From the NCBI RefSeq assembly GCF_000026545.1, contig NC_011601.1: a stretch of DNA of 64,000 bases. One strand, written 5' to 3'. The position numbers are program-made. Below are positions 36,290 through 39,200 of this stretch, one piece after another. Origin of the DNA: Escherichia coli O127:H6 str. E2348/69. Its GTDB lineage: Bacteria; Pseudomonadota; Gammaproteobacteria; Enterobacterales; Enterobacteriaceae. Each line of letters starts with the position of its first letter. Within the stretch, counting starts at the first letter, position 1.

Positions 36290-39200
36290 GGTCGTTACGC
36301 TGCTAATGACACTCCCCGCTTATGCGAAGTTAACGGCCCATGAAGAAGCCCGTATCAACGCCATGCTGGAGGGATTAGCACAGAAAAAGGATTTGATATT
36401 TGTGCGCAACGGTGATGAACATACCTGCGATGAAGCGGTTTCTCATCTGCGCCTGAAGCTGGGCAATACCCGTAATCGCATTGATACAGCCGAGCAGTTT
36501 ATTGACAAGGTGGCCTCGTCGTCATCGATTACCGGGAAGCCGTATATCGTGAAGATGCCCGGTAAGAGCGATGAGAACGCACAGCCTTTTTTACATGCGT
36601 TAATTGCGCAGACGGATAAAACGGTGCCTGCGCAATAATCTTAAATCCCCGCCCCCTGGCTAAAATACTCTTCCCCAAACACCCCGGTAGAAAGGTAGCG
36701 ATCGCCACGATCGCAGATGATCGCCACCACCACCGCGCCAGGGTTAGCTTTTGCCACCCGCAGTGCTCCGGCAACCGCGCCGCCGGAGCTTACGCCGCAG
36801 AAAATCCCTTCCCGCACTGCCAGTTCGCGCATGGTGTTTTCCGCATCGCGCTGATGAATATCCAGCACCTCATCCACCAGAGAAGCATTGAAAATCCCCG
36901 GCAGATATTCCGCAGGCCAGCGGCGAATGCCGGGAATACTGCTGCCTTCTTCCGGCTGCAGGCCAACAATGGTCACCGGTTTGGATTGTTCGCGCATAAA
37001 GCGTGACACACCGGTAATGGTGCCGGTCGTCCCCATACTGGAGACAAAATGCGTAATGCGCCCGCCAGTTTGCTGCCAGATTTCCGGCCCGGTGGTGGTG
37101 TAATGGGCGAAGGGATTATCAGGATTATTGAACTGATCGAGCAGCTTTCCTTCACCACGATTGGCCATCTCCAGCGCCAGATCGCGCGCGCCTTCCATGC
37201 CCTGCTCTTTGGTGACAAGAATCAGTTCCGCACCGTATGCCAGCATCGCTGCACGGCGCTCCTGGCTCATGTTGTCGGGCATCAGCAATTTCATGCGATA
37301 GCCTTTAAGCGCGGCAATCATTGCCAGCGCAATGCCGGTGTTACCACTGGTGGCTTCGATCAGCACGTCACCCGGTTTAATTTCCCCGCGCTTTTCCGCC
37401 TCAACGATCATCGAAAGTGCCGCACGATCTTTTACCGAACCTGCCGGGTTATTACCTTCCAGTTTCAACCAGACTTCACTGCCGTTATTCGGCCCCATTC
37501 GCTGCAACTTCACCAGAGGCGTATTGCCAATTGTTTGTTCTAATGTACTCACGATCTATGTCCATACGTGGTGTTGCCTGATGCGACGCTTGCGCGTCTT
37601 ATCAGGCCTACAGGTTACAAACCTTGCCATTAAAAAGCCCGGATCGCGGGAAGCGCCTCCGGGCGTTTAACATTCACTCAACCTATCAGGCGCTTTGTGC
37701 GAGAGCAAGTTCCTCATCACGGGTTTCAATACGCTCATCGCCGTTATACAGCCGCGCATGTTGCAGACCAACGTATAAACGATCGCCACGCTGCGGGGCA
37801 TCGTCGCCATGCATCACGACCGTCAGCGGTTCGTTGTACCACCCCAGCGGCTGCACCACTAATTGGGTGTAGTGACCTTTCGGGCTGGCTTCCAGTACCT
37901 GTACTGGTAGCGGCGAATCGAGGCTGGTACGGCGGCTGATATCCACTTCCCACGGGCGCAGGAAGAGATCCACCGGCCCCTGATACGCGGGGGTGTATCC
38001 CAGCGGCCAGCGATGTGCGCCAACGTGGAACTGCCCGCCGCGAATGGTTCCCTGCAGGCGGTTTACCTCGCCCATAAACTCCAGCACAAAACGAGTCGCC
38101 GGTTCACGCCATACCTGATCCGGTGCGTCAGCTTGTTCAATATTGCCCTGACTCATCACCACTACACGATCAGCTACTTCGGTCGCCTCTTCCTGGTCGT
38201 GGGTCACGAACACGCTGGTGAATTTCAGTTCTTCATGCAGTTGACGCAGCCAGCGACGCAGCTCTTTACGCACCTGCGCATCCAGCGCGCCAAACGGTTC
38301 ATCAAGCAGCAAAATTTGCGGTTCCACAGCCAGCGCGCGTGCAAGCGCCACACGCTGTTTCTGACCGCCGGAAAGCTGCGCCGGATAACGATCCGCCAGA
38401 TGAGCAAGCTGCACCATCTCCAGCAATTTTGTCGCTTTCGCTTTGATCTGCGCCGCATTCGGGCGTTCACGCCGTGGCAACACCGTCAGGCCAAAAGCGA
38501 TATTGTCAAACACCGTCATATGGCGAAACAGCGCGTAATGCTGGAACACGAAACCGACTTTACGGTCCCGCGCGTGCAGACGGCTCACGTCGGTACCGTG
38601 AAAGCGAATATGCCCACTGGTTTGATGCTCCAGCCCGGCGATAATGCGCAGCAGCGTGGTTTTCCCGGAACCGGACGGCCCAAGCAACGCGACCATCTGA
38701 CCAGAAGGAATATCCAGTGAGATATCGTTCAGCACCTGGGTGCGACCAAACGACTTCTTAATATTGGCAATCTCAATGCTCATGATGCTCCTCCTGCTGC
38801 GCGCGTTTTTCCTGGTTCTCCAGGCGCCACTGCAACATACTCTTTAAAAACAGGGTGATAATCGCCATCAGCGTCAACAGCGCCGCGGCGGTAAAGGAGC
38901 CGACGGTGTTGTAGTCTTGCTCCAGCAATTCAATCTGTAACGGCAGCGAAAGTGTTTCGCCGCGAATCGAGCCGGAAACCACCGACACCGCACCAAACTC
39001 GCCAATCGCGCGGGCGTTGGTCAGCACCACGCCATAAAGCAGCGCCCAGCGGATGTTCGGCAGCGTGACGCGGCGAAACATCTGCCAGCCAGACGCGCCA
39101 AGCAAAATCGCCGCTTCGTCTTCCTGGCTGCCCTGGCTTAACATCACCGGCACCAGCTCACGCACCACAAACGGACACGTCACGAAGATGGTGACCAGCA

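Follow-up and report, generated by a model that had tools for sequence, protein, structure and literature searches.

Strain-specific islets, the so-called K-islands and O-islands, are known from comparisons of the Escherichia coli strains K-12 and O157:H7, and chromosomal integration hotspots are a general concept of the bacterial pan-genome. The junction between the genes yfeK and cysM has features of both. The insert carrying yfeS in K-12 resembles the K- and O-islands in that it is short, has an atypical GC content and is present in one strain within an otherwise collinear backbone, the corresponding site of O157:H7 being empty, but it differs from them in comprising a single gene without an integrase, a transposase or a tRNA anchor. 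Similarly, the junction resembles an integration hotspot in holding unrelated cargo in each lineage (yfeS, and other genes in E. albertii, Citrobacter sedlakii and Superficieibacter electus), though this cargo consists of one or two genes and not of multi-gene islands. It is very probable that E. coli O127:H6 str. E2348/69 keeps the ancestral, empty form of this site and that yfeS forms a cassette gained by horizontal transfer and since moved by recombination in its flanks. The locus may thus serve as a small example of how a single-gene cassette spreads by way of its flanks, and of how a junction between core genes is reused by different cargos.

The stretch of DNA analysed, hereafter called the window, comprises 64,000 nucleotides of the E2348/69 chromosome (NC_011601.1). 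The features of the junction and its surroundings are the following, in window positions:

35314..36165, minus strand: pdxK, the conserved left neighbour, used as synteny anchor (ORF list and RefSeq)
36270..36638, plus strand: yfeK, 122 amino acids, with a signal peptide, of the DUF5329/YfeK family (ORF list and RefSeq)
36603-36611 and 36628-36636, no strand: the arms ATTGCGCAG and CTGCGCAAT of a 9-bp inverted repeat seen in the fold, the second arm ending in the yfeK stop
36633..36640, no strand: the unoccupied insertion site, octamer CAATAATC (pairwise alignment and junction comparisons)
36636-36638, plus strand: yfeK stop codon TAA (direct sequence reading)
36639..36640, no strand: the 2-bp spacer TC, which separates the convergent stop codons of yfeK and cysM
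36641..37552, minus strand: cysM, cysteine synthase B, 303 amino acids (ORF list and RefSeq)

The claim of the initial annotation that the stops of yfeK and cysM lie only 2 bp apart was borne out by direct reading of the sequence, by the ORF list and by RefSeq, whose annotation of the identical E2348/69 sequence contains the same two abutting genes; the cysM stop codon TAA reads TTA on the plus strand (36641-36643). This spacing is a fact of gene order, to which the question of chance does not apply. YfeK belongs over its full length to the DUF5329/PF17263 and NF007646 families, matching the Pfam model with 108.7 bits (cutoff 27, E=1.8e-31) and the NCBIfam model with 279 bits (cutoff 171) over positions 1-122 of 122, and the allele in the window is the short-tailed one, with the C-terminus ...TDKTVPAQ directly before the stop. 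CysM, which shares 98% amino acid identity with its K-12 counterpart over 303/303 residues, is a cysteine synthase B as judged by this orthology and by its place as the final gene of the cysPUWAM cluster, with cysA and cysW upstream (ORF list and RefSeq). The 9-bp inverted repeat was considered as a recombination site and rejected, since it is at chance level and neither C. amalonaticus nor UBA5654 has it at the empty junction. By our estimate, a few perfect 9-bp stems with a short loop are expected by chance per 64 kb, and the one at the yfeK stop is probably incidental.

In K-12 (MG1655) the locus reads pdxK-yfeK-yfeS-cysM (b2418-b2421), with the flanking genes, their order and their orientation as in E2348/69, and the products of pdxK, yfeK, cysM and cysA are 95-99% identical between the strains. 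The K-12 order yfeK-yfeS-cysM had been given correctly in the initial annotation; yfeS is 735 bp long there and encodes 244 amino acids. When the window was aligned to K-12, gaps of 958 bp and 1 bp opened after positions 36635 and 36639, respectively: where E2348/69 has CAATAATC, K-12 has GAAGGAAATTAATCC, yfeS, a REP/BIME tail and a second copy of ATTAATCC, amounting to 958 + 1 additional bp. K-12 YfeK is 124 residues long, its tail exceeding that of E2348/69 by two codons (…PAEGN vs …PAQ before the stop). Within the insert, yfeS is preceded by 32 bp of spacer that include an AGGAGG ribosome-binding site, and its product, annotated as 'WGR domain-containing protein', carries a WGR domain (PF05406) at residues 9-71 (E=6e-18). 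The tail of approximately 190 bp contains two REP hairpins (BIME), which recur about 40 times per genome. A match of YfeS to a Leptospira fibronectin-binding NCBIfam family was dismissed, as it reflects the shared WGR domain only (71 bits vs a cutoff of 1000). When K-12 YfeS was searched by tblastn against the whole 64 kb of the window, only a 15-residue match with E=3 was returned, and no WGR-domain ORF of around 244 amino acids lies between yfeK and cysM, which are separated by nothing but the 2 bp.

The synteny comparison across Escherichia genomes that had been proposed as a check of the junction was run on 5,426 complete E. coli genomes. A 140-nt query that had the E2348/69 junction at its centre matched contiguously in 4,038 of them, which hence have the empty junction, and the yfeS coding sequence was present in 1,387, at a median of one place per genome and at most two. 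As the two counts add up to 5,425, the classes are complementary and yfeS is confined to this locus. The carriers include many laboratory derivatives of K-12 and B, such as DH1, JM109, MC4100, S17-1 and BL21, which places the natural frequency of yfeS below 25%; it is an accessory foreign gene in about a quarter of the complete E. coli genomes, a share inflated by the laboratory strains. The K-12 yfeS cassette is patchily present at a site with conserved flanks, as islets are. The junction sequence GCGCAATAATCTTAAATCC was identical in 6/6 other yfeS-less Escherichia loci that were compared (the E2348/69 RefSeq record, O157:H7, SE11, ES1, JNE112863 and SCPM-O-B-8794). The absence of yfeS is an ordinary pan-genome difference between strains, already visible in existing annotations.

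Some minor variation was seen on either side of this comparison. In O157:H7 N8B7-2 (L005, ~1190, corresponding to window positions ~36589-36594), yfeK is annotated as frameshifted, the T6 run of CCTTTTTTACATG being a T5 run there. Among the carriers, yfeS is in some cases disrupted by an insertion sequence, namely the IS4-like ISVsa5 in strain T2 (L003, 3837-5045) and IS1A in LR-03, which fits a dispensable gene.

By composition, yfeS stands apart from its surroundings, with a GC content of 39% vs 46% for yfeK, 52% for pdxK and 56% for cysM (flanks 46-57%). Moreover, in a search of 5.8 billion proteins the identity of YfeS homologues dropped from at least 89% for those of the E. coli type to at most 65%, the named ones among the latter coming from Paenibacillus, Lysinibacillus, Clostridium, Dysgonomonas and Bacteroidota, all within Firmicutes and Bacteroidota, and the same search yielded no intermediate enterobacterial relatives. 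Two further marks of an islet, atypical composition and the lack of close vertical relatives, are thus found in yfeS.

The polarity of the difference was assessed by parsimony from about six outgroups, obtained by a YfeK scan of species-representative genomes which gave 22 loci, in each of which the neighbouring genes were mapped. In Escherichia sp. E1V33, SCPM-O-B-8794, Enterobacteriaceae UBA5654, C. amalonaticus, Superficieibacter sp. 1612_C1 and Pseudocitrobacter faecalis, yfeK directly faces cysM, and in E1V33 the two ORFs even overlap. The 'E. coli' genome SCPM-O-B-8794, a GTDB species representative with an empty junction, is approximately 9% diverged from both K-12 and E2348/69 over pdxK-cysA and is therefore usable as an outgroup; in all likelihood it is a member of a cryptic Escherichia clade. 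The spacers of the empty junctions are short and differ between genera, as expected for an old and vertically inherited empty state. P. faecalis is not fully independent in this set, since the end of its yfeK and the junction are almost identical to those of E. coli and may have been imported. Taken together, the empty outgroups, the low GC content and the gap in the homologues argue that the absence is ancestral and that yfeS was acquired horizontally, and we infer from these sequence comparisons that the direction of change was a gain of yfeS. The initial annotation was right that yfeS is absent from E2348/69, but its description of the gene as expected here and missing was centred on K-12, which carries the derived state; such a K-12-centred expectation can mislead about gene content.

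Two loci showed further peculiarities. P. faecalis (L011, ~4290-4500, compared with window positions 36560-36760) is almost identical to E2348/69 over the terminal ~75 nt of yfeK and the junction (0-1 mismatches per 60 nt), the remaining yfeK differs by 15-40%, and a cryptic Escherichia clade is more diverged at the yfeK end and junction than P. faecalis is. This near-identity could be due to a short inter-genus recombination tract, or to some constraint. In Escherichia sp. MOD1-EC7003 (L024, 4001-4171), the match to yfeK ends after codon 37 and is followed by unrelated sequence up to the contig end, which may reflect an insertion or a rearrangement inside yfeK.

These comparisons suggest the following course of events. 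In the ancestral state the convergent genes yfeK and cysM would have abutted, and the E2348/69 lineage would never have possessed yfeS. A foreign cassette of ~0.96 kb, composed of a slightly longer end of yfeK, a ribosome-binding site, yfeS with its low GC content and the REP/BIME tail, would have been acquired horizontally and now sits at the extreme 3' end of yfeK in K-12-type strains. Homologous recombination via the conserved yfeK and cysM flanks has probably moved the cassette later between strains, and even between genera. An uncultured Pseudocitrobacter MAG (L012, 4408-5316) carries yfeS at the K-12 junction, where both the boundaries and the REP tail are those of K-12, and its nucleotide identity to K-12 is 95.9% for yfeS, 80.5% for yfeK, 89.6% for cysM and 92.8% for cysA. 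As yfeS is more conserved than its core neighbours, it has not been retained since the split of the genera, which argues for a recent exchange. K-12 and BL21 have identical flanks up to a point ~150 bp ahead of the junction, beyond which they differ by up to 7-8% over the end of yfeK and over the insert, and by 2-7% over ~1 kb of cysM. Similarly, K-12 differs from the close but yfeS-less Ec-U9-1 and isolate 410 in a block of divergence that spans approximately -1.8 kb to +0.6 kb relative to the insert, in otherwise near-identical DNA; the pdxK-cysW region is mosaic overall, and this block is thus suggestive but not unique. Spread of yfeS by flank recombination is accordingly a reasonable, not a proven, reading of the sequences, in which the gene appears to have travelled through the homology of its flanks and not by a mobility of its own.

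E2348/69 and K-12 also diverge in a strongly mosaic manner over window positions 32000-41400, with 0-1 mismatches per 200 nt in most of ptsI-crr, the number rising to 5-19 from cysM to cysP. Adjacent core genes hence differ in their recombination history.

The abutting stops had been taken to imply either a precise deletion or an ancestral absence. A deletion, in which the E2348/69 lineage cleanly lost yfeS, for instance via the 8-bp direct repeats ATTAATCC that flank the insert, could draw on the presence of this octamer at both insert edges in K-12, BL21 and the Pseudocitrobacter MAG (L001, 2241-2248 and 3193-3200) and on the capability of such direct repeats to mediate deletions. However, recombination between the repeats would leave ...GCGGAAGGAAATTAATCCTTAAATCC..., which is not the ...GCGCAATAATCTTAAATCC... 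found in E2348/69 and which occurs in 0 of the 5,426 genomes, where the best full-length matches to it were at most 95.6% identical and, being 6-7 nt shorter, represent ordinary empty junctions. Moreover, the window contains no scar of yfeS or of the REP elements, and ATTAATCC is only one of eight two-copy 8-mer families in the ~1-kb region, which corresponds to chance level. The occurrence of the empty state in the outgroups, as well as the foreign composition and phyletic distribution of yfeS, also speak against a loss, and we give a deletion very little credence. Of the two possibilities originally offered, the ancestral absence has thus stood, the empty junction being the majority state in E. 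coli, the outgroups being empty and yfeS being foreign, and the precise deletion has fallen with its predicted product, which is in no genome.

An old balanced or trans-species polymorphism, with filled and empty alleles that predate the split of Escherichia and Pseudocitrobacter and have both been kept, would account for the filled and empty states with almost the same boundaries in both genera, and also for the two yfeS alleles that coexist in E. coli, whose divergence is 2.7% over the CDS and 4.7% over the whole insert. Co-divergence since that split is contradicted by the 95.9% identity of yfeS between the genera vs 80-90% for the flanking core genes, and the unusually E. coli-like junction of the empty P. 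faecalis points to a recent exchange and not to ancient retention; we regard this explanation as very unlikely, though marginally less so than the deletion. The prospect that an error of assembly or annotation dropped yfeS from E2348/69 is practically negligible, given that a 1.5-kb query across the junction matches the finished E2348/69 chromosome at 100% identity and that 4,038 independent complete genomes share this junction. The preferred reading hence remains that of an ancestrally empty site in E2348/69 and a cassette gained by K-12-type strains.

Several vehicles and roles were considered for the cassette. An assignment of the K-12 insert to the transposons or IS elements was rejected, as it contains no transposase, integrase or terminal inverted repeats, yfeS being its sole gene and the inverted repeats found in it being the REP hairpins. 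The 8-bp repeat ATTAATCC at its edges would be compatible with a target-site duplication, but is at chance level and does not reproduce the sequence of the empty site. Plasmid carriage was likewise rejected, since the only close plasmid match, pZ0117EC0005-3 (NZ_CP098226.1, 70% identity), is a frameshift-ridden chromosomal copy; this 50-kb public record holds the chromosomal order crr-pdxK-yfeK-yfeS-cysM-cysA, probably through an artefact of assembly. Phage carriage was discarded with only Listeria fragments, 31% identical, having been found. Neither YfeS nor the cargo of E. albertii matched a PADLOC family at E≤0.01, and a role of YfeS as an anti-phage defence gene was rejected on account of this lack of a match.

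In published work, yfeK and yfeS are described as one operon under a sigma-E promoter, and YfeS as a protein without known function (PMC11502571). Deletion of yfeS in K-12 lowered the MIC of boric acid, an effect that was only partially complemented (PMC11502571), and the gene has been listed among hypothetical proteins with a regulator but without an inferred function (PMC12356324). What has been ascribed to yfeS in K-12, for instance that its deletion mutant is sensitive to boric acid (PMC11502571), hence has no bearing on the majority of E. coli, the EPEC strain E2348/69 among them.

The arrangement of the genes may also bear on transcription at the junction. No terminator-like or promoter-like site was found within 36100-37700, and folds of ±60 nt around the junction were no better than those of shuffled sequences (z = -0.72 and +0.98); a terminator at the 2-bp junction was rejected on these grounds. 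K-12 has the BIME tail between yfeS and cysM, whereas E2348/69 has no such tail. In E2348/69, the transcript of yfeK, driven by sigma-E, likely converges with that of cysPUWAM without an intergenic terminator or REP buffer, and with the stops 2 bp apart and no terminator-like site or significant structure, each of the two would be expected to terminate within the other gene or antisense to it.

Cargos other than yfeS were observed at the same junction. E. albertii NBRC 107761 (L016, 4331-6150) carries a 1.8-kb insert with 34.5% GC and two hypothetical ORFs on the cysM strand, one of 280 amino acids without a Pfam or PADLOC match and one of 175 amino acids with a weak, sub-threshold match to DKNYY. 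In C. sedlakii (L017, 4431-8142), a 3.8-kb insert holds tandem ORFs of 628 and 654 amino acids, the former without a Pfam match and the latter with weak TPR matches, and a hairpin lies just ahead of the cysM stop. S. electus (L019, 4488-4895) has a 135-amino-acid DUF4440/SnoaL-like ORF between yfeK and cysM, the TAA stop of which overlaps the cysM stop (TTAA).

The different cargos of E. albertii, C. sedlakii and S. electus indicate that the junction is a reused insertion point. A more far-reaching proposal would be that the 3' end of yfeK is a recurrent hotspot of the Enterobacteriaceae, at which cargos of one or two genes, mostly of low GC content, enter at the same few bases through a shared site-directed mechanism, and the filled and empty alleles of which are traded across genera on very short recombination tracts. 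We consider this unlikely, though less so than a polymorphism retained since before the genus split; neither a shared mechanism nor mobility genes nor common end sequences were found among the cargos, except that S. electus and the K-12 allele have the longer yfeK tail and the motif TTTGGGAAGG in common at the left end. Judging from this shared sequence, some of the filled left junction may predate yfeS itself.
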